Shown: piece by piece, positions 665-27,716 of the stretch | Layout of the letters: the number at the start of each line of letters is the position of its first letter | How positions within the stretch are numbered: the first letter of the stretch is position 1 | Assembly: GCA_963700285.1 (NCBI GenBank) | Contig: CAVOXA010000001.1 | Location: forward strand, 384,001 to 448,000 | DNA: 64,000 nucleotides | Reading direction: 5' to 3' | Origin: an uncultured Chloroflexia bacterium | GTDB taxonomy: Bacteria; Chloroflexota; Anaerolineae; JAAYZQ01 | Position numbers and translations under genes: made by a program | The notes under the pieces: generated by a model | Databases searched by the model: none | Told to the model about the DNA's origin: nothing | Seen by the model: only the letters and a program-made list of their open reading frames with translations

Positions 665-1210
665 ATGAAATGCTCAGCATACATTGCCGCCAGCGTTGAT
701 GGATTCATCGCCCGGCCCGATGGCGACATCGACTGGCTTCATAAGCCCGAGTATGCCACGCCGGATAGGGACGACTTTGGCTACGCTGATTTCATCAAGT
801 CGGTGGACATCCTGGTCATGGGAAGCGCAAGTTACGAAAAGGTACTGTCCTTCTCCGAATGGCCTTATGACGAGATTCCGGTTATCGTTCTGTCGAGCCG
901 TGACTTGGTCATTCCAAGCCGCCTACATGGCAAAGTCAGGATAAAGAACTCCGTCCCAGAAGAACTTGTTTCTGGACTGGGGGCTGAAGGAGCCAAGCAC
1001 CTCTATATTGACGGCGGTAGGACAATCCAAAGCTTCATGAAAGCCGGGTTGATCCACGAGATCACGATCACGCAAATACCTATTATTCTCGGCAGCGGCA
1101 TTCCCTTGTTTGGCTCCCTGGGGGTTGAACGATCATTGCTTCACCAGGTTACAAAATCCTTTGGCAACGGCTTTGTTCAAACGACCTATCAGGTGGTCTA
1201 CGCTACCTAG
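665..1210 (+). CDS. Dihydrofolate reductase / RibD C-terminal domain family protein
   Basis: YIAASVDGFIARPDG, LVMGSASYE, IDGGRTIQSF, PIILGSGIPLF; ATG 665 after GAGGAG. Confidence 0.88.
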   Translation: MKCSAYIAASVDGFIARPDGDIDWLHKPEYATPDRDDFGYADFIKSVDILVMGSASYEKVLSFSEWPYDEIPVIVLSSRDLVIPSRLHGKVRIKNSVPEELVSGLGAEGAKHLYIDGGRTIQSFMKAGLIHEITITQIPIILGSGIPLFGSLGVERSLLHQVTKSFGNGFVQTTYQVVYAT

Positions 1211-1347
1211 CGCGTCTGAGCCAGAGAGTACCCAATGATACTCACCAACACGATGCTCTGGGGCTCGCGGCCTTTGGTCTGTGCCAGGTCGGGGTTTGTC
1301 CCACTCTACAGTGACTCGGTTGTTGCCCAATTAGGAGGGTGTGAGAC

Positions 1348-2292
1348 ATGAACCAGGCACCTGACATTGAAGCGGCTCCGCTTCGTTATGCTGGCGTAGC
1401 CACGCTGCTGCAAAGGCCTCTGGTGAGCGATCCTTCGGGCGTGGATATCGCTCTGATTGGCGTTCCCTATGATGGTGCCACCGAAAACCGGCCGGGTGCC
1501 CGGCACGGCCCTCGGGAAATCCGCAACATGTCCAGCTTCACGCGTGCTGTCCATCACGTGACGCGCGTGAATCCTTACGAACTCGGCAACATCGCAGATC
1601 TGGGGGATGTGCCTTTTTCCAATCCATTTGACCTTCAACAATGCTTCACCGACATTACCCACTTCTATCGCAAGGTCTGTGCTGCCAGTGCGGTACCTTT
1701 GAGTGTTGGCGGCGACCACTCTATCACGTTGCCCATTTTACGAGCAGTTGCGGCTGAACGGCCAGTGGGCATGGTCCACATCGATGCCCACACCGATACG
1801 AGCGACCACGAATTCGGGCAAAAGTACACCCACGGCACGCCTTTCCGGCGAGCTATGGAAGAGGGTTTGCTTGACCCCAAGAGGACGATCCAGATCGGCA
1901 TTCGAGGAGCGCAGAACTCGGAGGAAAGCTGGCATAGCTCTGAGGATGCAGGCATTCGCGTCGTGTACATGGAAGAACTCACTTCCCTGGGCGTTGAGGC
2001 CATGCTTGACCAGGTAAGGCATGTGGTCGGTCAGGGACCGACCTACCTCTCCTTCGATATCGACAGCCTTGACCCGGCCTTTGCCCCAGGTACCGGGACA
2101 CCAGAGATAGGTGGCTTGACGCCCATCCAGGCACAGGCGCTAATACGAGGGCTGGCAGGGCTTGAACTGGTCGGTGGCGACGTGGTTGAGGTATCCCCAC
2201 CTTTTGATCCTACCGGGAATACGGCCCTCGTTGGCGCCACCTTGTTGTATGAGATCGTGTGTGTTCTGGCGGACGCTTTCGTCCGAAGGTAG
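1348..2292 (+). CDS. speB: Agmatinase-family ureohydrolase
   Basis: GVPYDG..RPGARHGP, GGDHSIT, HIDAHTD, HGTPF, SFDIDSLDPAFAPGTGTPEIGG; RBS AGGAGG; exact substrate uncertain. Confidence 0.85.
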   Translation: MNQAPDIEAAPLRYAGVATLLQRPLVSDPSGVDIALIGVPYDGATENRPGARHGPREIRNMSSFTRAVHHVTRVNPYELGNIADLGDVPFSNPFDLQQCFTDITHFYRKVCAASAVPLSVGGDHSITLPILRAVAAERPVGMVHIDAHTDTSDHEFGQKYTHGTPFRRAMEEGLLDPKRTIQIGIRGAQNSEESWHSSEDAGIRVVYMEELTSLGVEAMLDQVRHVVGQGPTYLSFDIDSLDPAFAPGTGTPEIGGLTPIQAQALIRGLAGLELVGGDVVEVSPPFDPTGNTALVGATLLYEIVCVLADAFVRR

Positions 2293-2452
2293 AGACTGAA
2301 GCAGCAGCGAACGCGCGTGCTCGCGTAAGGCTGATGCCTGGCTTCAGATGGCAGCTGAAAGGAATAATAGGAGGGAACAAGGCTGGCAGGCTTGTCTATG
2401 CTCAGCAGGGACGTGGCGAAGAGTGGACAGAAAGTGTAGCAGAGAGTCTGGG

Positions 2453-3328
2453 ATGAACTGGATACCGGTCATCATCAATCCTTCTGCGGGTCGAAAGACA
2501 GCGATTCTGGCCGAGCTAAACCAGGTCTTTCGGGCCGCCGGTATCCGCTGGTCCGTTGAGATCACCCAGGCAGAAGGTGATGGGATAGTACTTGCCCAGC
2601 AGCTTGTCGAGCAAGGGGCACATACTGTTGCAGTATACGGCGGTGATGGCACGATATGCGAGGTGGCAACGGGCCTTGCTAGCACCCAGGTGGCGCTTGC
2701 TCTTCTTCCTGGCGGCACTGGCAATGTGCTTGCCTACGAGTTCGGGATCCCTCGTGATTTTGTCGCAGCCGCACGTTTGCTTGTTTCCGAGCATGCTCTC
2801 CGTCTTGTAGATCTGGGAGCAATCGGAAACCGCAAATTCCTCTTGAGGGCCGGTGTGGGTTTGGAGGCAACTGCGATAGAACGAACCCCACGCGAGCTAA
2901 AAGATCGCTTTGGCCTATTGGCGTACGGCATTGGCGGTTTGCAGGCACTGATTGAATCTCGCCCGATGAGCTATGTTCTAGAACTGGATGGCAAGATCCA
3001 CGAGACACAGGGTTTGGTCTGCACGGTGGCAAATTCGGGTCACTTGGGATTACCTGGTTTGAGGTTGTCGCCCAAGATCGACATCGCGGACGGTCTGCTC
3101 GACGTAGTCGTCCTCCAGCATGTAGACCTTAAACTCATCGTGCAATTCATATCTGACAATGTTGGCGGCGCTCTTGAGCTGGGGGTACTTCAGCATTGGC
3201 AGGTCGCACATGCCAGCATACGGGTCGACCCTCCCCAGAGCGTTCAGGTTGATGGTGATTACCTGGGTATGACTCCGGTCGAGATACGCTGCCTTCCCCA
3301 TTCTCTCCATGTGGTCGTGCCGAAATAG
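2453..3328 (+). CDS. Diacylglycerol kinase (YegS/DAGK) family lipid kinase
   Basis: IINPSAG, GGDGT, LPGGTGN, DGLLDVVV, QVDGD motifs. Confidence 0.9.
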   Translation: MNWIPVIINPSAGRKTAILAELNQVFRAAGIRWSVEITQAEGDGIVLAQQLVEQGAHTVAVYGGDGTICEVATGLASTQVALALLPGGTGNVLAYEFGIPRDFVAAARLLVSEHALRLVDLGAIGNRKFLLRAGVGLEATAIERTPRELKDRFGLLAYGIGGLQALIESRPMSYVLELDGKIHETQGLVCTVANSGHLGLPGLRLSPKIDIADGLLDVVVLQHVDLKLIVQFISDNVGGALELGVLQHWQVAHASIRVDPPQSVQVDGDYLGMTPVEIRCLPHSLHVVVPK

Positions 3329-18828: not shown

Positions 18829-19974
18829 TCACGGCAGATCCCGGCAGTTCCCGCTGCCGGCCTGGATCGAGTGGTCCGGATTGGCGACGAGGATGCACAT
18901 CTGTGATGCGTTTGCGGGGCGGTCCGCTACACCATACTCTGTGAAGGGGCTCGTGCCGCCATAGACGATCCAGGGGCCGCTGCCAGGGACGCCGGCTTCC
19001 CCCTGAGGCACCGTGTCAAAAAAGAAGTGCACGTGCTGTCCCGGAAGCTGCGGCTCGAATCCCAAAGTCTCAAAGTCTACCACATAGCCTTCGCCCTGTA
19101 TGGAAATGCTGTTGATGCGCGCGGATTCGGGTTGCAGGGCAATTTCAAAACTCCACATCCAGACTACATTGCTGCCGTTGTAGGGGTTGATGTCGATGGT
19201 GACGGTGTGCAGGCCGTTGGTAATCTGCGCGCCTCCTGGCCAGTGAGCATCGTACTCAGCCAGGGATAGTACGTCGCAGTCTGGCTCGCCCCCGCCAAAT
19301 ACGCAATAGCCGGCGTTGTTTTCGGTCCTTTCGTGAACCGGGTTGCCGTTTGGGTCGAGGATGGTAAAGGTGACATTTTCGATGCCGTCGCCGTCGTTCG
19401 TGCCGACATTGGCATCGAACACCTCGGCCTGAAAGACGATCCGGTCACGGTAGACCATGGGCTCTGTGGCTTCGCCCGGCGAATAGCCCGGCAGGGTGAC
19501 ATTGCGCCCGTCCTTCACCGGGTGGTTGTTGCGGATATTCGGTACGTCACCGCCGCCTCCGTCCACTGGCAGGACTGCGATCAAGACCGGTGTTGGGCTA
19601 GGTGGCGGGGGTGGTGGGGTGTCAGAAGGATCCGGTGGCGGTGCTTCTGTCGCGGCTGGCTGCTGTACGTCCGTGACTGCCGGAACAGGGGTCAGGGTCG
19701 GTGATGGGGATGTATCCTTCGGCGCGGCTGCCGCCAGTGTGGGTGTGTCCTCGGGTGGTGGTGCTTCTGCCGGCGCGGCTGCCGTTAGGGTGGGTATGGG
19801 TTCGGGCGGTGGTACGGCTGCGGTCAGTGTGGCCGCGACTGCCAGGTCTTCGGCCACGCGCGTGGCGACGCGATCTGCTTCTGGCTCATCCGCCGGGGAT
19901 GATCCACCGCAGGCTACCACCAAGAGCCCGGTCAGAATCAGGCTGAAAACCAGGAACGATCTGTGCTTTGTCAT
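18829..19974 (-). CDS. Lipoprotein with Pro/Thr linker and two beta-rich extracellular domains
   Basis: Signal peptide with lipobox LVVA-C; Pro/Thr-rich linker; C-terminal HVHFFFD domain with paired Cys; starts 2 nt after the TPR gene stop. Confidence 0.8.
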   Translation of the reverse strand: MTKHRSFLVFSLILTGLLVVACGGSSPADEPEADRVATRVAEDLAVAATLTAAVPPPEPIPTLTAAAPAEAPPPEDTPTLAAAAPKDTSPSPTLTPVPAVTDVQQPAATEAPPPDPSDTPPPPPPSPTPVLIAVLPVDGGGGDVPNIRNNHPVKDGRNVTLPGYSPGEATEPMVYRDRIVFQAEVFDANVGTNDGDGIENVTFTILDPNGNPVHERTENNAGYCVFGGGEPDCDVLSLAEYDAHWPGGAQITNGLHTVTIDINPYNGSNVVWMWSFEIALQPESARINSISIQGEGYVVDFETLGFEPQLPGQHVHFFFDTVPQGEAGVPGSGPWIVYGGTSPFTEYGVADRPANASQMCILVANPDHSIQAGSGNCRDLP

Positions 19975-19976
19975 GT

Positions 19977-21530
19977 TCACTCTCCTGCCAATGCCAGTAG
20001 CGCTTCTTCTACGTACCTATCCAGAGGTACGCACGAATCGGCAATGATCGCCGATCTGAGGATCTCGTCTTCGGGCGCCCGTCCTTCCTGGTCAATGCAG
20101 CCAGCGAAGGACTCGCGCGCGTGTTCGTATGCCGTCCGGCTGCCCGCCACATCCCCCCGCTTGCGCTGTATCTCGGCCTGTTGGGTGTAGGCTGCGCCCA
20201 ATGCCTGGTAGGCTTGGGCCAATATCCGGTATTGCTCTGCTTCGGCCAGGGGGTCCAGGACAGGGACGATCTCGCTGATGGCCAGGTCAAAGAACTGGTT
20301 GGCTTGTACGTCTTCTTGGAGCCAGAAAAAGGTCTCGCCCTGCAGGCGGTAGGCGCTGGCCAGTGCAAGACGGGCTATGATCTCAATGAGTGGCTCGTGG
20401 GATAGCTGGGCCAACTCCAGCCCCCTCTGATAGCTGGCGATTACCGCATCCATGCGCCCGCTTAACGCTTGCACCTCCTCCACCCGGAGGGGACTCTGGG
20501 GAGCGTGCAGCAGCTTCTCGATCCTGCGGAATTCCACCCCGGCCAAAACGATCTGAGCCCGGGCATAGTTAGGATCGATCTCCAGTGCTTTCTCCAGGGC
20601 CTCTTCGGCTTCATCAGGACGGTCCAGGAACAGTGCAGATCGCCCGATCCAGAAAAAGAGGATCTCTTTGCCCTCTCCTTGTTCCCTCCAGTTTGGCAAA
20701 CCTGTCTCCGCTTGCCGAAAGATGGACAGTGCGCTCTCTGACCGTCCCAGAAGATCTTCTCGGAGCCCCAGGAGCAACTGGAACAGAGCGCTGGCGCGCG
20801 TTGCCACCTGGCTGCCCAGCGCCTCCTTGGCCAGCGTATCGGCGCTATTGAAGTGCGCTGGGATCCGGACCGGATCGCCCAATTGGTAGCGGCCGATGGT
20901 CACGTTGGCCTCGCCCCGGACGCGGGGTCTCACATAGAACTCTAGCACCAATTCCGCCGGGCTCTGAGGGGGAGTCAGATGGCCATAGATGACGACGTCC
21001 GCGTCGATCTCACTGGCCAGTTCGCTGGCTGCTTCAGCCCTGGCCTCCGGCGTCTTGCCAGACATCATGCCCAGCTTCACGCGCTTTTCCAGCAACGACA
21101 TGCTGTCGTGCCAGATCTCCACGCCGCTCTCCGCCCGCTGGTCGTTGGCCGCCGTCAGCTCATCATAGATCCATTTGCTGAAAAGTTCGCCATCTTCTGA
21201 GCGACGCATCTGACCATCTGCGCCTATTTCTCCGATCTCGGTCACGGCCACGTTAAAGCGGGCGTCCATCCTGGCAGGTCCAGCAAAGTTTAGGGCAACA
21301 AAGACCAGGGCACCAACCACCACGGCCAGCAAGCCCAACAGCGGTACCGTTGGGATCTTTAGGGTGCCGATCTTGATGATGTTCTTGCCGATGACAACGT
21401 CCCGGGCCCCCTCGCCGACGTAGGCCGCGATCACATCCCGGCGTTTGTCGCGTTGAAGAATATCTCCCAGGGTCCGCCGCAGCCAGCCCTGCCCCTTGAC
21501 CTTGTCAGAGCCCGATGCATCGTCGCTCAT
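19977..21530 (-). CDS. Single-pass membrane TPR protein with N-terminal amyloid-like motif
   Basis: Basic N-tail, motif at aa 32-51, TM about aa 61-82, alpha/beta domain (FNVAV..IDADVVIYG), TPRs (EAEEALEKALEIDPNYARA). Confidence 0.8.
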   Translation of the reverse strand: MSDDASGSDKVKGQGWLRRTLGDILQRDKRRDVIAAYVGEGARDVVIGKNIIKIGTLKIPTVPLLGLLAVVVGALVFVALNFAGPARMDARFNVAVTEIGEIGADGQMRRSEDGELFSKWIYDELTAANDQRAESGVEIWHDSMSLLEKRVKLGMMSGKTPEARAEAASELASEIDADVVIYGHLTPPQSPAELVLEFYVRPRVRGEANVTIGRYQLGDPVRIPAHFNSADTLAKEALGSQVATRASALFQLLLGLREDLLGRSESALSIFRQAETGLPNWREQGEGKEILFFWIGRSALFLDRPDEAEEALEKALEIDPNYARAQIVLAGVEFRRIEKLLHAPQSPLRVEEVQALSGRMDAVIASYQRGLELAQLSHEPLIEIIARLALASAYRLQGETFFWLQEDVQANQFFDLAISEIVPVLDPLAEAEQYRILAQAYQALGAAYTQQAEIQRKRGDVAGSRTAYEHARESFAGCIDQEGRAPEDEILRSAIIADSCVPLDRYVEEALLALAGE

Positions 21531-21593
21531 GGTACCAGCCGGCTCGTTTGGCCAGCAAGGAGTCTGTTCATTCTCCGCCCTGTTGCCATGGAC

Positions 21594-23219
21594 CTATCCT
21601 CTTGCTCCAAAGCGATTCTTTGCCCACTCCACTGCTTCGTCTCCGGCCTCTCCCATCGCTCTGCCTACGGCCGGAGCGGCGAATAGCCGCCGGATGGCCT
21701 CGGTGAGTTGGGGCACGTTGTCAAGAAGCCAGTCACCCACCTGTACGATGGTATTGGCGCTGGGCTTGCTGCCGTCTCCCGCTTTGACCAGTTCTCCCCG
21801 CAGCAGCTTTAACTGGAACTCGGCCATCATGGTCACCTGGGGATCAAGCTCCGTTCCGAGCCGCCGAAAGGAGGCTTCTGTTTGGGCAAACTGTTTTTCG
21901 ATACTCTGGCCATCGTCGGCGCTGGGCTTGCCCAGAATGATGGTGATCTCCTTGCCAATTGTCGTCTGCTGGGCGCCTGCTCCCGCAAAACCAATGATCA
22001 CATCCCCTGCGCTCTGGACCGAGATGCCCTCCCACCAGGGCTGCTCTCTTTCGTCTGCCACCTGATTCTCCTCCCTGGCTGCCATTTGCCATAGGATGCC
22101 ATCTGTGGAGCGCATGAACAGCACAGGCGTTCCCCACTCGTGTTCGTTCCCCTGCCGGTAGATGGCTTTGCGCGCTTCCGCCAGGGCGGCGTCGACCGGA
22201 TAACCATCTGCCAGAGCCAGGTAAAACTCGTGGGCCAGGATCTTGGCAGCGCCGTCCGTGATCGGAGACTGCATGGCAACCACCGCGGGGATCCCCTTTT
22301 GCACCAGCGTCTGTGCTGTTCCAGCGAATGGACCGCTATGGGAACCGCGTGCTCCTTCACAAGCGTTCAGGACGGCCAGCCGCAGTGAGGGCTCGTCGTG
22401 CAGCAGGGTTCCCAGCACCTGGCTGCTGACCAGATGACTGGCCCCGGCGCCATCCTCCAGGACGAGCAGACCATCCTGGGTCTGCTCGTCAAAGGCGCCG
22501 TGGCCCATAAAGTGAAAAATGTGGTACTTGCCCTGGCGCAACTGCTTCTGTAGTTCAGCCAGTGTCGCTGTGTCCAGCCGGTGCAACAGGACCTGCCCTT
22601 GGGCTTTCAGGTCCGCCAGGGCTTTGTTGAGTTTGGCCCACTCCTCTTCAACGTCCAGCGGAGGCTGATCTTTGGGCGCCGAGATCATGACCAGCACGTG
22701 GAGCGGCGGCTCTGTGGCCATTGGCTCCTGGCGCTGGAGTACATCCAGGTAGCGCACGACCGGGCTTTGAGTGGACAAGCTCAGGAATTGGTTGTGAGCG
22801 GGATCGTAGAAAAGTTCCCAGGGCAGCTTGGCCAGCTCTGGTACGTCCGTCAGCAGCAAACGGATGCGCAATCCATCCGCGCCCTGCCGGGCAGTCTCAT
22901 CCTGGCTTCTTCGCAGAAAGCTCAGGACCTCGCCATGGAACACGGCCTCAAAAAGGTACTTCCCCAAGGCACGGGGATCCAGGGGGATGGCCGGCTGGGG
23001 AGCAGGCACGGGCGTTGCTGGGACCAGTCTTCTGTGATCAGATACCGGCTGTCGTGGTTCCGACCCTGAGGCTCGAAGCACCTTCTGTTCGGAAAGAGAA
23101 ATGCGGCTGCTTGCTCCACCCTGTACCGGCGAGTCGATGACGAGCGAGCGGTAACTACCCTCCCAGGGCTCGATGCGAAGGTCAAAGTTCAGATAAATTG
23201 GCGGCTCTGTAGACAGCAT
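21594..23219 (-). CDS. CHAT (caspase-like) protease with C-terminal motif and helical domain
   Basis: LPWELF, HIFHFMGHG (His), LAVLNACEG (Cys), VVAMQ, EWGTPVLF. Confidence 0.9.
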   Translation of the reverse strand: MLSTEPPIYLNFDLRIEPWEGSYRSLVIDSPVQGGASSRISLSEQKVLRASGSEPRQPVSDHRRLVPATPVPAPQPAIPLDPRALGKYLFEAVFHGEVLSFLRRSQDETARQGADGLRIRLLLTDVPELAKLPWELFYDPAHNQFLSLSTQSPVVRYLDVLQRQEPMATEPPLHVLVMISAPKDQPPLDVEEEWAKLNKALADLKAQGQVLLHRLDTATLAELQKQLRQGKYHIFHFMGHGAFDEQTQDGLLVLEDGAGASHLVSSQVLGTLLHDEPSLRLAVLNACEGARGSHSGPFAGTAQTLVQKGIPAVVAMQSPITDGAAKILAHEFYLALADGYPVDAALAEARKAIYRQGNEHEWGTPVLFMRSTDGILWQMAAREENQVADEREQPWWEGISVQSAGDVIIGFAGAGAQQTTIGKEITIILGKPSADDGQSIEKQFAQTEASFRRLGTELDPQVTMMAEFQLKLLRGELVKAGDGSKPSANTIVQVGDWLLDNVPQLTEAIRRLFAAPAVGRAMGEAGDEAVEWAKNRFGARG

Positions 23220-23322
23220 GCTTGCTCCCTTGGTCAGCAGATCGGTGGGGTGGGCCCCTGCCTCCAGGGCGTGGCTGCGATTCAGGACGATGATTCTATG
23301 GCCTGCCCCGATTTACGCCAAC

Positions 23323-23351
23323 ATCATACATTAATATGGGCTATTTGTCAA
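23323..23351 (-). promoter_or_regulatory. sigma70 promoter for the CHAT-TPR-lipoprotein operon
   Basis: Minus strand TTGACA-17 nt-TATGAT in an AT-rich patch. Confidence 0.7.
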
Positions 23352-24356: not shown

Positions 24357-26913
24357 CTACGCGGACGTCTCCTCGGCCAACCGGGCGCGCACCTGGACCA
24401 GGACCTCGCCCCACGGTTCTGCCAGTGGATGTCTGATTTCCCGCACAAAGGCAACAGCCTGCTCGAGGAGGGGCAGCGCTTCAGCGAAAGCTCCCTGTTG
24501 GGCCAGCCAGGTGCCGAGGGCCCAGTTGATGTTTGTCTGGCCCACGCGGTCGCCCACTTGCTGGTAGAGCGTCAGGGAGGCACCATACGTTTCGAGCGCT
24601 TCCTGTACCTCTCCCTGCGCCAGGTAGAGACTCCCCAGGGCCTGCAGGGTGTTGGCCTCGCCCAGGCGGTCGCCGACGGCGCGGAAGAGTTGGAGGGCCT
24701 GTTGGTAGCTGTCCAGGGCGTCGTCGTTCGTCGCGGAACTGCTGGACGTCGCCGATGGCCTGCAGGGTGTTGGCCTCGCCCAGGCGGTCGCCGACGGCGC
24801 GGAAGAGTTGGAGGGCCTGTTGGTAGCTGTCCAGGGCGTCGTCGCGTTCGTCGCGGAACTGCTGGACGTCGCCGATGGCCTTCAGGGTGTTGGCCTCAGC
24901 CCCGGCGTCTCCAGCGCGCCGGGCGGCGGCGGACGCGCGCCGCAGGCGGTCCACGCCCTCCTCGGGCCAATCGAGGAGCATGTACAGGTTGTGCAGGGAG
25001 CCCACCAGCCGGGCGGCCTGGGCGGCGCTTTCGCCTTCCTGGGTTAGCCCCCAATCGGCGAAGGCGTGCAGGTTGGGCAGCTCGGTCAGCGCCATGGCCA
25101 GGCTAAATCCCGACGCATGGCTCAGCGGTATCTCACCCAGTTTTTCTATCACCTGCGCATAGTGGGCAACAGCAGCGGGCCCGTAACATTCCCAGGCATC
25201 GGCCGGCAGGCGGCGCTCGGCGTAGGCCCGGGCCGGGCCAGGCAGGCGCACCCGGCTGTCTCCCGCTGCCTCCACTAGGCTGGCCGCCCGGAGCCGGGCC
25301 ACCAGGGACACCGCCGCTGGCCCCAGAACCGCGCGGACCGCTGCCTCGTCTGCCCCGCCGGGAAAGAGGGCCAGCAGGGCAAAAACCTCCGCCGCCTCCG
25401 GGTCGGTCTTTGCCAGATGACTATGCGATAGGGAGAGGGAAACGTCGACGCTGTCCAGCTTGTCGCGCGCCTCGGGCGGCAGGCCGGGCTCGGCCAAAAG
25501 CTGCTCCCTTTCCGCTTCCAGGCGCCGACGCAGCTCGGCCAGAGAATAGCCGGCCAGCAGGGGCGCGGCCAGTACCAGGGCCAACGGCCAGCCGTCGAGG
25601 AAGTTGAGCACCGCAACCAGGTCGTCCTGCTCCCCCCCAAGGTCCCATCCCGCCAGATCAGCCTCCCGCAGAAAGAGCAGGCGGGACTCGTCGGGGGCCA
25701 GGCGGCCGAGGTCTTGGTACCTGGCCGGCGGGCGACGGCCCAGGCGCTCGCGGCTGGTCAAGAGCAGGTGGCAGCCCCTGGACCCACTCAGCGCGGAACC
25801 GCCGGCCTGGCACAGGGCGCTGAGCAGATCGCGCAAGCTCCGCTGGCTGTGGCGCGCGGCCTGGTCCAGATCATCCACGATGAGCAATCGCTCGCCGCTG
25901 GCCAGGGCCGCAGCCAGGTCGACATTGGAGGCCGCCGCCTTGGGATGGAGCCCGGCCGCCTCGGCCATCCGGGCCCGGACCAGGCTCAGGTCGGAAACAC
26001 CACGCAGATCGACCCAGCCGATGCCCGCCGGATAGTTGCCCCGGGCAGCCAGCCACCGGCCGGCCTCGCGGGCCAGCTCTGTCTTGCCCATGCCGCCCAT
26101 CCCCATCAGTACCGTCAGGCGGTTTCCCAGCACGTTGCCCACCAGCTTGTGCAGTTCCCGCTGGCGGCCGGTAAAGGTCTCCGGCCGGACGCCTAGAAGG
26201 TGGGGCGATGGGGGTGGAATGCAGCGGGCCACGTCTCCGGCCGGCAAGCCCGGCGGAAAGAGGGGGGCGCTGTGCTTGCCCCCGTCCTCGGGCGCGGGCA
26301 GCAGGCGGAACTTGAGCGCTTCCCGCCCGGCCAGGCCCGCGCGGGCCAGGTCAGGCTGGGTGCGAACGGCGGTCTGGCCCAGGCCAAAGGCGGCGGCCAC
26401 GCTCTGGCCAGCCAGCAGCGCGGCATAGAAGGCGCGGGCAAAGGCTGCTGCCGCCAGATCGACTACCGGCTCGTCCTCGTCCACAGCCACCACGTGGGGC
26501 ACGCCCGCGGCCAGCAACGCCGCGGCCAATCCCGCCGAATGGCAGGCGCTGAGAAAGGCCAGCTCAAAGGCCAGTTCTCCACCAGGACAGACCAACGCCG
26601 CCAGTTGGCCGCCCGGCAGGGGGTGCAGGCCGCCGCGCCCGTCCTCAAAAGCCAGGGCCTCCGGGTGGCCGTGGCCCGTATAGTGTAGGACGCTGTAGCG
26701 GCGGTGCAGCAGCGCGCGCTGCAGCCGGTCCGTCTCGGCCCACTCGACATAGAGGTCGACGGCCCGGCCTGGCTCGCGCAGCCAGCGCTCCAGGCCGTCC
26801 AGCTCGCCGGCCACATCCAAAAGGTCCACTGGCCTGCCCTGCAAGTCCACCAGTGGCGCGGAAACCAGGGCCAGGATGGCCGGGGGAATGGCTGCCGGGG
26901 GGGGCATGGTCAT
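24357..26913 (-). CDS. CHAT-NB-ARC(STAND)-TPR NLR-like protease, with a 2-bp frameshift near 24726
   Basis: VLHYTGHG and FLSACHS dyad; FTGRQREL, GMGGMGKT, LLIVDDLD, DGWPLAL; TPRs continue in another frame (..GDRVGQTNINWALG..EETSA*) to 24357. Confidence 0.85.
24639..24897. repeat. Near-perfect 120-bp tandem repeat (40-aa TPR units), about 2.2 copies
   Basis: Units start at 24639 (118 bp), 24757 (120 bp) and 24877 (partial); the two full copies differ only by a missing CG. Confidence 0.92.
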
Positions 26914-27716
26914 GTTTCTACAGCCTCCAATCGGTGCTGCACCTCCCGCGCCCGGGATTCCAGGTTGTCATCGGCCAGGCCACCGAGGAGGGGCAGGGCC
27001 TCTGCCAGCCGTTGCCTGGCGGCCTGGGGCCGGTAGGTCGCCTGGTACAGCGCCGCCAGTTCCACCAGCAGGTCGGCTCGGGCGCGTTGCTCCATACGGC
27101 CATCGCCCAGGCTGCGATAGTCGGCCAACAGGCTCTCCAGCACGCGGATCTGCTCTTCGGCCTGGGTCCGGGCTGGCGCCTCGACCGGGCCGGCGCCGTA
27201 GGCCCACTGCGGCGAAAAATCAAAGCTTCCGCTGCGCCAGGCCCAAAAGTCCGGCGCGCCCTGGGCCAGGCGGATCAGGGCGGCGTTGGACAGCCAGAAG
27301 ACCAGGGCACAGGGCAGATCTCGATAGTTTTCCCGGGCCAAGTTGAGTTGGCTCAACAGGGGGGGCTGGTTCACACCGGGTGACAGGACCTCTTCCAGAC
27401 CGCAGACGTGGATACAGGCCGGCCTCTTGCCAGCCTCCGCAATCCGGCAGACGGTTTTTAGGCCGGCCAGCAGGCCCGCCGCCGGCGGCACGACCTCCAA
27501 CCGCCGTGACCGGTAGCCCTGCCGGGCCAGCCGCTCCTCCATGAGGGCGATCAGGTCATCGCGCAGGGCTGGCTGGTCGCAGCAGGCGAAAAAGAGGGCA
27601 AACCCCTGGGCCAGCTCGATGGCCCGCTGCAGGTGCCCCATCGTTTCCAGGTTCTCAGCGCTCGGGGCTCCTGCAGCCTCAATCGGCGTCCGGGAGTCCG
27701 AGATTGCTTCGTTCAT
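26910..27716 (-). CDS. Degenerate P-loop/STAND-like domain with short TPR, partner of the upstream ATPase
   Basis: FALFFACCD (no Walker A Lys), IHVCGLEE, LNLARENY..LVFWL..APDFWAWRSG; C-terminal TPR-like helices; overlaps both neighbours. Confidence 0.65.
   Translation of the reverse strand: MNEAISDSRTPIEAAGAPSAENLETMGHLQRAIELAQGFALFFACCDQPALRDDLIALMEERLARQGYRSRRLEVVPPAAGLLAGLKTVCRIAEAGKRPACIHVCGLEEVLSPGVNQPPLLSQLNLARENYRDLPCALVFWLSNAALIRLAQGAPDFWAWRSGSFDFSPQWAYGAGPVEAPARTQAEEQIRVLESLLADYRSLGDGRMEQRARADLLVELAALYQATYRPQAARQRLAEALPLLGGLADDNLESRAREVQHRLEAVET

Follow-up and report, generated by a model that had tools for sequence, protein, structure and literature searches.

The stretch of DNA analysed here (the window; 64,000 nucleotides, positions 384,001 to 448,000 of the forward strand of contig CAVOXA010000001.1, GenBank assembly GCA_963700285.1) comes from an uncultured Chloroflexia bacterium and carries, on its reverse strand, three adjacent genes for a CHAT (caspase-like) protease, a single-pass membrane receptor and a lipoprotein-like exported protein (genes 1, 2 and 3; Table 1). 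A motif of ~25 residues is found both in the protease and in the N-terminal tail of the receptor. Comparison with related loci gives good support to the view that this motif is a functional, partner-specific element which stands in for a covalent link between sensor and effector, and sensor and protease are probably coupled through it. As to the manner of coupling, templated cross-β (amyloid-like) stacking of the motifs of receptor tail and protease is suggested by the analysis as a possibility, held with slightly less than even confidence.

The earlier note on this DNA had described two 20-residue stretches, residues 406–425 of gene 1 (nt 21945–22004) and residues 32–51 of gene 2 (nt 21378–21437), with 10 of 20 positions identical and no other similarity between the proteins. 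The positions were verified, and a BLASTP comparison of the two proteins gave one notable match (11/23 residues identical, E = 0.005 for this single comparison), all other segments having E > 5. Taken alone, the match of the window pair is marginal in sequence terms. A hidden Markov model (HMM) built from receptor-side motifs only (21 distinct homologues) gave the CHAT neighbour rank three (E = 0.94) in the set of 103,114 six-frame open reading frames (ORFs) of the genome; rank two was taken by an unrelated ORF, an aldolase-type enzyme as read by eye. Values as modest as the pairwise E of 0.005 and the genome-wide E of 0.94 would fit a similarity due to chance, or a functionless gene-fission relic of a duplicated juxtamembrane linker. 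The same receptor-only HMM, applied to 52 partner homologues (relatives of the last 157 residues of the CHAT protein among proteins of 297–947 residues), detected the motif in all 52 with scores of 10.5–37.3 bits, ~135 residues from the C-terminus, and receptors retain it down to ~30% overall identity. The motif is beyond chance because homologues conserve it in this way. It also co-varies between the paired proteins and is missing from forms in which CHAT is fused to the transmembrane helix (both described below); a chance or relic origin is extremely improbable and was ruled out on the conservation and pairing data.

The 20-residue match is the window's copy of a longer conserved Gly/Val/Asn motif, and distant partner homologues lie nearer to the receptor consensus than this copy does. 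A combined HMM (67 distinct segments) retrieved only the two adjacent genes from the 7.05-Mb genome (E = 2e-11 and 9.5e-9; the next hit had E = 1.4). The consensus emitted was GDVIAAYVGEGARDVVIGKNIIKIG for the receptor set and GDVIIAYVGAGARNVAVGKNITQII for the combined set. Four Gly are conserved in the motif, as is Asn; the Gly are placed where they would interrupt three short hydrophobic strands, and the residues G, D, G and K are invariant. The motif was unstructured in the AlphaFold2 monomer models of both proteins, with a predicted local distance difference test score (pLDDT) of 47–65 in the partner and 41–52 in the receptor; the flanking domains were modelled confidently. Pfam and NCBIfam gave no match on the motif, on the helical bundle that follows it in the partner or on gene 3, and no Pfam EAD match was found on the motif, a segment of 25 residues with low pLDDT.

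Loci were collected by two routes. Entry via the bundle gave 19 genome loci [17 from Chloroflexota, one from an Acidobacteriota metagenome-assembled genome (MAG) and one from an Actinomycetes MAG], of which 18 could be evaluated and one ended at a contig edge. A motif-bearing receptor stood beside the partner in 15 of the 18, immediately downstream on the same strand in 14 and in convergent orientation in one (L014, 0.7 kb); no receptor was present beside the bundle gene in the remaining three (L011, L012 and L018). Entry via the receptor ectodomain gave 51 metagenome loci, comprising 24 with motif-bearing receptors, eight with CHAT-fused receptors, six with N-terminally truncated receptors and 13 with other heads. 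The partner was encoded directly upstream in 22 of the 23 evaluable loci with a motif-bearing receptor, the exception being L049. Neither motif nor bundle occurred anywhere in the eight loci with CHAT-fused receptors, and relatives with CHAT or TIR fused before the transmembrane helix have neither the motif nor a partner gene. Conservation of the motif in orthologues and its pairing between neighbouring genes, on which the earlier note had staked its proposal, were thus both found.

Some loci depart from this arrangement. Two tandem motif-bearing receptor genes follow one CHAT–motif–bundle gene in L036 (1–3468). The CHAT–motif–bundle gene of L011 (5729–12740) is followed by AAA, DUF6575, MoxR-like AAA_5, VWA_CoxE and TPR genes; these neighbours fit the name TCAD2 (a Pfam family discussed below) and hint that the bundle can plug into MoxR–vWA systems. 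Distant bundle homologues with a degenerate motif in L021 (1462–1917; E = 7e-13) and L022 (1483–1917; E = 8e-11) sit just downstream of an ORF of 480–490 residues with a hydrophobic segment instead of preceding a receptor. In the genomes searched the system is rare: the module occurred in three of 401 sampled genomes of the phylum, that of the window included, and the other two cases were distant, enzyme-free and had a degenerate motif. A tblastn search with the module gave only chance-level matches in plasmids (E ≥ 0.3) and none in phages, and therefore no route was found to the Bab/Agp antiphage system (discussed below) or to mobile elements.

The paired motifs resemble each other more than unpaired ones. 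Over 33 unique pairs, cognate motifs shared 13.97 of 25 residues compared with 12.21 ± 0.25 after shuffling, and none of 10,000 shuffles reached the observed value; position 6 (Ala/Gly) agreed in 28 of 31 in-register pairs (15.5 expected), position 14 in 18 (9.5 expected) and position 7 in eight (3.6 expected), figures that overstate the number of independent events because both genes are inherited together. Different but matched motif classes appear more telling than these counts. In the L042 pair (1029–3202) a matched GGDVV/GDKIT repeat type replaces the main motif, and in the L057 (1658–3695) and L060 (683–2695) pairs a matched GDKV-repeat type is present, the partners being small helical proteins encoded upstream. 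Both proteins of the L053 pair, which has a CHAT partner, carry the same two-residue insertion in the motif. The L062 pair has an unrelated SGDFRGA–INIKST type, found on the receptor and at the start of a 143-residue protein encoded upstream, in which a helical region follows. Such partner-specific co-variation and whole-motif swaps would be unexpected if the motif were a recognition or cleavage site read by a conserved third party (CHAT itself, a chaperone or a membrane-targeting factor) instead of a protein–protein contact. The motif does lie in linker-like unstructured regions, and CHAT proteases of related conflict systems have been proposed to act by (auto)proteolysis in the available text of Kaur et al. 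(2020; PMC7159879); most motif-bearing partners nevertheless have no protease domain and their loci encode none. A role as a site for a third factor is accordingly considered very improbable, and the specific case of a CHAT cleavage site was rejected on these grounds.

Behind the motif, the partners conserve a region of ~105 residues with 62% mean column identity (17-row alignment). AlphaFold2 (63 sequences) predicted a six-helix bundle for this region, with ten-residue block-mean pLDDT values of 88–98 over model residues 41–140; model residues 1–40, which hold the motif, had block means of 47–65 and no secondary structure. The motif stands at a fixed short distance before the bundle in every partner, the variant classes included, and receptors have the motif but never the bundle. 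This arrangement would suit an intramolecular latch, in which the partner motif packs on its own bundle and the receptor copy competes for the same groove, releasing or capturing the bundle. AlphaFold2, however, does not dock the motif on the bundle (the pLDDT values being those just given), and the TCAD2 family, to which the bundle is possibly related, has no known latch of this kind; this explanation is rated as rather improbable.

The domain before the motif in the 52 longer homologues is CHAT in 49, EAD7 in two and TIR in one. Short partners were more numerous, with at least 275 clusters of proteins of 77–268 residues that contain motif and bundle at E ≤ 1e-5; among the 120 listed, 117 were without a Pfam domain, one had EAD7 and two were CHAT fragments, and most were of ~157 or ~225 residues. 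The CHAT fusion in the window is a minority form, since most partners are without an enzyme domain. To judge by the sequences compared, motif plus bundle is the constant partner element and the protease is an optional add-on. Two side observations concern the N-terminal parts of partners. The N-terminal helical extension of the ~225–244-residue partners looks by eye like the helical head of the ~576-residue receptors (residues 1–70 of P0124/P0125 and of P0026/P0035), with the pattern L..L..IL.E..A....AP..L..Q, for which BLASTP gave no support (E = 65). In L007 (4965–7444) an enzyme-free partner gene is immediately preceded by an insertion sequence (HTH_Tnp_1 and rve integrase genes), which may have removed an N-terminal effector domain.

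A Foldseek search with the bundle against the PDB gave no match at E ≤ 0.001, a wide VIA search returned generic helical bundles only (best Z 7.7, root-mean-square deviation 3.3, 97 residues aligned) and the bundle profile had no match below E = 0.45 among PDB sequences. The partner of the variant locus L042 matched Pfam TCAD2 (PF19971, 'ternary complex associated domain 2') exactly at the cutoff (27.0 bits), and the family profile aligned with this partner in hhalign (84%, E = 7e-6, 121 columns); a direct match to PF19971 was obtained for 0 of 17 bundle family members at E up to 1. A TCAD2 cluster was also among the nearest in the ESM Atlas (score 0.92, a lead only). The bundle is possibly TCAD2-like. 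No text on TCAD2 was found in the literature searched, which included the available parts of Kaur et al. 2020 and 2021 (PMC7159879, PMC8195603). A pore-forming bundle of the Bell or HeLo kind was considered but is not claimed, the last helix being by a hand estimate too weakly hydrophobic for a membrane helix.

Gene 2 matched TPR_8, TPR_1 and TPR_2 above the Pfam cutoffs and had no NTPase match, in keeping with the earlier description of a receptor without NTPase. In the AlphaFold2 model (59 sequences, mean pLDDT 86) a low-confidence tail (residues 1–56, with pLDDT < 50 at residues 25–45) is followed by a single transmembrane helix and an ectodomain made up of an α/β subdomain and helical repeats; ten-residue block means were ≥ 84 from residue 81 on, apart from 66 at residues 201–210. 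The repeats resembled consensus TPR structures in Foldseek (E = 8e-7) and, by VIA, LGN (Z 19.2, root-mean-square deviation 4.8, 259 residues aligned) and the peptide-binding Rap, NprR and PlcR proteins (Z 15–17); judged from the model, the likeness to Rap, NprR, PlcR and LGN is a generic TPR resemblance. The α/β subdomain was not identified by Foldseek or VIA, whose fold lists were filled by TPR matches; a TolB-N-like fold is a guess. The N-terminus is probably cytosolic and the TPR domain outside, because relatives carry fused cytosolic domains and the tail is basic (12 K/R against 8 D/E). The single-pass topology with a basic tail inside and external TPRs, as first proposed from the sequence of gene 2, is consistent both with the one predicted helix and with the CHAT-, TIR- and STAND-fused relatives.

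Across 70 receptor homologues the ectodomain is conserved and the part before the transmembrane helix differs. The ~517-residue forms carry the motif directly before the helix; a strict pattern was matched in 29 of the 70, and the motif HMM by 32 of the 64 homologues with a full ectodomain. Forms of ~810–840 residues (24 of 70 by precomputed Pfam assignments) have CHAT fused before the helix and no motif, and forms of ~576 residues have a helical N-terminal region and retain only the juxtamembrane end of the motif. Among metagenome receptors, N-termini that read by eye as TIR-like (L044/L045) or as EAD-like and helical (L064) precede the same helix. The 988-residue receptor relative of L062 (3975–7380) consists of the other N-terminal motif, a P-loop (GASGSGKS) NTPase-like region, the transmembrane helix and the ectodomain; its P-loop region reads by eye as STAND-like, which would make L062 an NLR-like version of the system anchored in the membrane. 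In a quick tree built from 64 ectodomains and rooted at the midpoint, motif-bearing, CHAT-fused and other heads were interleaved; five of 69 rows had been left out because their ectodomain match was short, and some rows labelled 'other' are N-terminally truncated fragments. The well-supported branches force at least three changes of the motif label and at least six of the CHAT-fused label. The same sensor scaffold therefore seems to have received different cytosolic heads repeatedly. Some receptors (P0014, P0016 and P0017; L001, 6962–8629; L025, 1276–2529) have a second, partial motif copy between the first one and the transmembrane helix; these partial copies recall the pseudo-repeats of amyloid signalling motifs, though they are here on the receptor side.

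The third gene is a conserved companion of the receptor. Its product begins with a hydrophobic, signal-peptide-like N-terminus ending in V-V-A-C-G, with a lipobox-like V-V-A-C at residues 21–24 (read from the sequence), and third genes of related loci have similar N-terminal ends in ...A-C or ...G-C. A domain of ~120 residues in gene 3 recurs in the gene after the receptor in eight of the loci compared (BLASTP E = 1e-9 to 7e-20). An HMM detected this domain in 39 of 70 related loci, behind receptors with every type of head; a contig edge cuts off many of the remaining loci. Because it accompanies all head types, the core of the system would be the sensor plus the lipoprotein, with an exchangeable cytosolic head; the conserved third gene also agrees with the co-receptor role that had been suggested for the lipoprotein.

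Templated stacking of the motif is favoured on account of its length (~25 residues), its four Gly and conserved Asn, its disorder in the monomers, the interchangeable matched sequences and the amyloid-like genetic grammar. In the mechanism envisaged, the TPR ectodomain and the lipoprotein would bind an outside cue, which would bring the receptor tails together. Once clustered, the tails would adopt a β-arch stack (strand DVIIAxV, arc GxG, strand AxxVxV, arc GKN, strand IxQ) that would serve as a template for the motif of the partner. Within the oligomer so formed, induced proximity would turn on CHAT, or elsewhere TIR or an EAD7-recruited effector; in the commoner enzyme-free partners the helical bundle might itself be the output or might recruit one.

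Several observations weigh against such stacking. In the described bacterial and fungal pairs the effector motif is C-terminal, unlike the internal position found here, where it is followed by the folded six-helix bundle in 52/52 homologues. The conservation of the motif is unusually high for an amyloid signalling motif, and a specific folded interface would fit it as well. No match to RHIM or HET-s was obtained with Pfam on either motif region, even at E up to 10. The co-variation counts are inflated by common inheritance, as noted above, and the window pair is among the least similar cognate pairs (11/25 residues). With most partners lacking an enzyme, 'protease activation' fits a minority of the family only. 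Receptor and partner motifs also differ in a constant manner (E against A at position 10, R against Q/K at position 13, V/I against A at position 16 and V/I against T/Q at position 22), and such fixed asymmetries would fit a finite β-sheet interface equally well.

A finite, non-amyloid β-sheet of this kind (a β-zipper heterodimer or small oligomer) would tether the partner constitutively, and the signal would pass by a conformational change or by regulated release. It would account for the same data on pairing, exclusivity, co-variation and fused forms, and the strong residue conservation together with the systematic differences at the four positions above fits an asymmetric interface. The occurrence of several unrelated motif sequences in homologous pairs is nevertheless simpler to explain if self-similarity alone matters; the length and the Gly/Asn/Val composition are like those of described amyloid signalling motifs, and AlphaFold2 gives the motif a structure in neither monomer. 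A finite sheet is regarded as somewhat unlikely, and templated stacking is retained as the working explanation.

The features of the locus are collected in Table 1. The three genes had been read as an operon with its own promoter, which agrees with the near-consensus promoter site, with a spacing of 63 nt between genes 1 and 2 and with an overlap of 4 nt between genes 2 and 3. The CHAT domain of gene 1 matched Pfam PF12770 with E = 5e-33 (115 bits, cutoff 24), and the His/Cys dyad reported for it is intact, with His240-Gly and Ala-Cys287 in the usual caspase-like contexts.

Table 1. Coordinates of the receptor–protease locus and its parts (positions in the window).
Feature	Position	Strand	Basis or remark
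Sigma-70-like promoter site, TTGACA-17-TATGAT	23323..23351	(-)	Consensus match only, 11/12; ~100 nt 5' of CHAT gene start
Gene 1, CHAT (caspase-like) protease – motif – helical bundle, 541 aa	21594..23219	(-)	
CHAT domain, gene 1 aa 87–360	22140..22961	(-)	Pfam
Effector-side motif, gene 1 aa 405–429	21933..22007	(-)	
Six-helix bundle, conserved, gene 1 aa ~436–537, possibly TCAD2-like	21609..21914	(-)	Alignment and AlphaFold2
Gene 2, single-pass membrane receptor, 517 aa	19977..21530	(-)	
Receptor-side motif, gene 2 aa 31–55, N-terminal tail	21366..21440	(-)	
Transmembrane helix, gene 2 aa 61–81	21288..21350	(-)	Model helix and hydropathy
Extracytoplasmic domain (predicted), gene 2 aa 85–517 (α/β 92–216 and TPR-like repeats 232–515)	19980..21278	(-)	
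Gene 3, lipoprotein-like exported protein, 383 aa	18829..19980	(-)	
Conserved ~120-residue domain, gene 3 aa ~163–283	19132..19494	(-)	BLASTP and HMM against related loci

A second caspase-like gene lies 1.3 kb upstream (24481–27716, reverse strand) and encodes a CHAT – STAND NTPase – TPR_12 protein of 810 residues, whose nSTAND1, NB-ARC and NACHT matches are all below their own cutoffs. Its 3' part contains a 118-nt tandem repeat (24639–24953; 2.7 copies, 86% matches, 3% indels), and its reading frame closes with a tail rich in Arg and Pro, a TPR-like ORF running on in another frame; this 3' end looks like a frameshift or an assembly slip within a highly repetitive TPR array. An ORF of 268 residues without a Pfam match (26910–27716) overlaps the start of the gene.

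The closest described systems were compared as far as the available parts of the respective texts allow. BASS motifs (Dyrka et al., bioRxiv 10.1101/2020.01.06.895854) are defined there by adjacent-gene motif pairs with CHAT/TIR effectors, always with NLR receptors and with C-terminal effector motifs. Like BASS1–10, the motif described here is short, is common to neighbouring gene products and stands at the receptor N-terminus; all-in-one fusions exist, CHAT and TIR are among the effectors and the hosts are filamentous or multicellular bacteria including Chloroflexi (BASS motifs also pair Bell-domain effectors). Unlike in BASS1–10, the receptor crosses the membrane once, has its TPR domain on the extracytoplasmic side and is without NTPase, and the effector motif is internal and followed by the bundle.

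The Bab/Agp antiphage system (Ibarlosa et al., bioRxiv 10.1101/2024.11.07.622273) uses amyloid signalling with a non-NLR, TPR-containing cytosolic sensor, and the available text of the same preprint reports the BASS11 motif with TIR, CHAT and EAD7 and with four Gly as β-breakers. The present system shares with Bab/Agp a non-NLR TPR receptor, an N-terminal motif (~24 residues in Agp) and a small helical partner, and with BASS11 the CHAT, TIR or EAD7 domains of the partners, a striking coincidence, and the four conserved Gly. Agp is, in contrast, cytosolic (TPR-GreA/B-C-PIN), and the parts of Bab stand in the reverse order: its motif follows the helical domain, while the partners described here have the motif ahead of the bundle. 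Q92, D99 and N100, residues conserved in Bab, could not obviously be mapped onto the motif, and BASS11 was compared by its description in the text only; the motif may or may not be BASS11.

EADs, in the available text of Kaur et al. (PMC7159879, PMC8195603), are small non-catalytic elements present on a core protein and on adjacent effectors, neighbours being more alike than non-neighbours. The motif is likewise an element carried by core and neighbour with cognates most alike, and EAD7 itself occurs on some partners; EADs, however, are folded domains of 60–100 residues, whereas the motif has ~25 residues and no predicted fold. A core of transmembrane TPR receptor and lipoprotein is not described in the available parts of these two papers. 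The EACC1–caspase 'System 4' (Kaur et al. 2020, PMC7159879) is also a two-gene, membrane-proximal system of multicellular bacteria with a caspase-superfamily protease. As far as the accessible text goes, it differs in that EACC1 is a small single-transmembrane protein with a Gly-rich helix, in the variable C-termini of the caspases and in having no TPR ectodomain, lipoprotein or shared short motif.

The earlier note had regarded the whole architecture as undescribed. This holds for the transmembrane receptor, and no description of such a receptor using a motif of this type in bacteria was found in the literature searched; it does not hold for amyloid signalling without an NLR, which is in print for Agp in the available text of 10.1101/2024.11.07.622273. 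The undescribed part is the transmembrane receptor, because both a non-NLR amyloid receptor (Agp) and a motif associated with CHAT, TIR and EAD7 have already been published.

Beyond bacteria, fungal HET-S/NWD2 and metazoan RHIM signalling link receptors to cell-death or immune effectors through templated cross-β motifs, as would be the case here; those systems belong to other kingdoms and have unrelated motif sequences, and the present one is known from sequence alone. In the Drosophila PGRP-LC/Imd pathway, the motif (a cryptic RHIM) lies in the cytosolic N-terminal part of PGRP-LC, a type II membrane receptor with its sensor outside, and the receptor of the window would share this topology.

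To our knowledge, amyloid- or adaptor-type coupling of sensors to cell-death effectors in bacteria is known for cytosolic receptors only (NLRs and Agp). What is new here is the same genetic signature (adjacent genes with matched short motifs, fused alternatives and CHAT, TIR or EAD7 outputs) on a receptor that spans the membrane, has its sensor domain outside and is accompanied by a lipoprotein. The architecture is conserved, previously unremarked and readily testable. To judge by the domain repertoire, the system is likely to let multicellular Chloroflexota answer an envelope-level signal with a conflict or cell-fate response. More tentatively, and with distinctly less than even confidence, the system might be a bacterial 'death-receptor' pathway, in which clustering-induced, prion-like templating would act across the membrane on caspase-like, TIR or bundle effectors, with the motif as an exchangeable private address label. 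If true, an envelope-level cue would reach caspase-like or TIR enzymes in a way that resembles animal death-receptor and PGRP-LC/Imd signalling, and the conserved helical bundle would be defined as the element common to the partners. Should the motif act in the proposed manner, the small size of many partners (only ~157 residues) would make the family a compact model open to testing, and the occurrence of several matched motif classes on a single receptor scaffold would amount to a natural experiment on the specificity of templated signalling.

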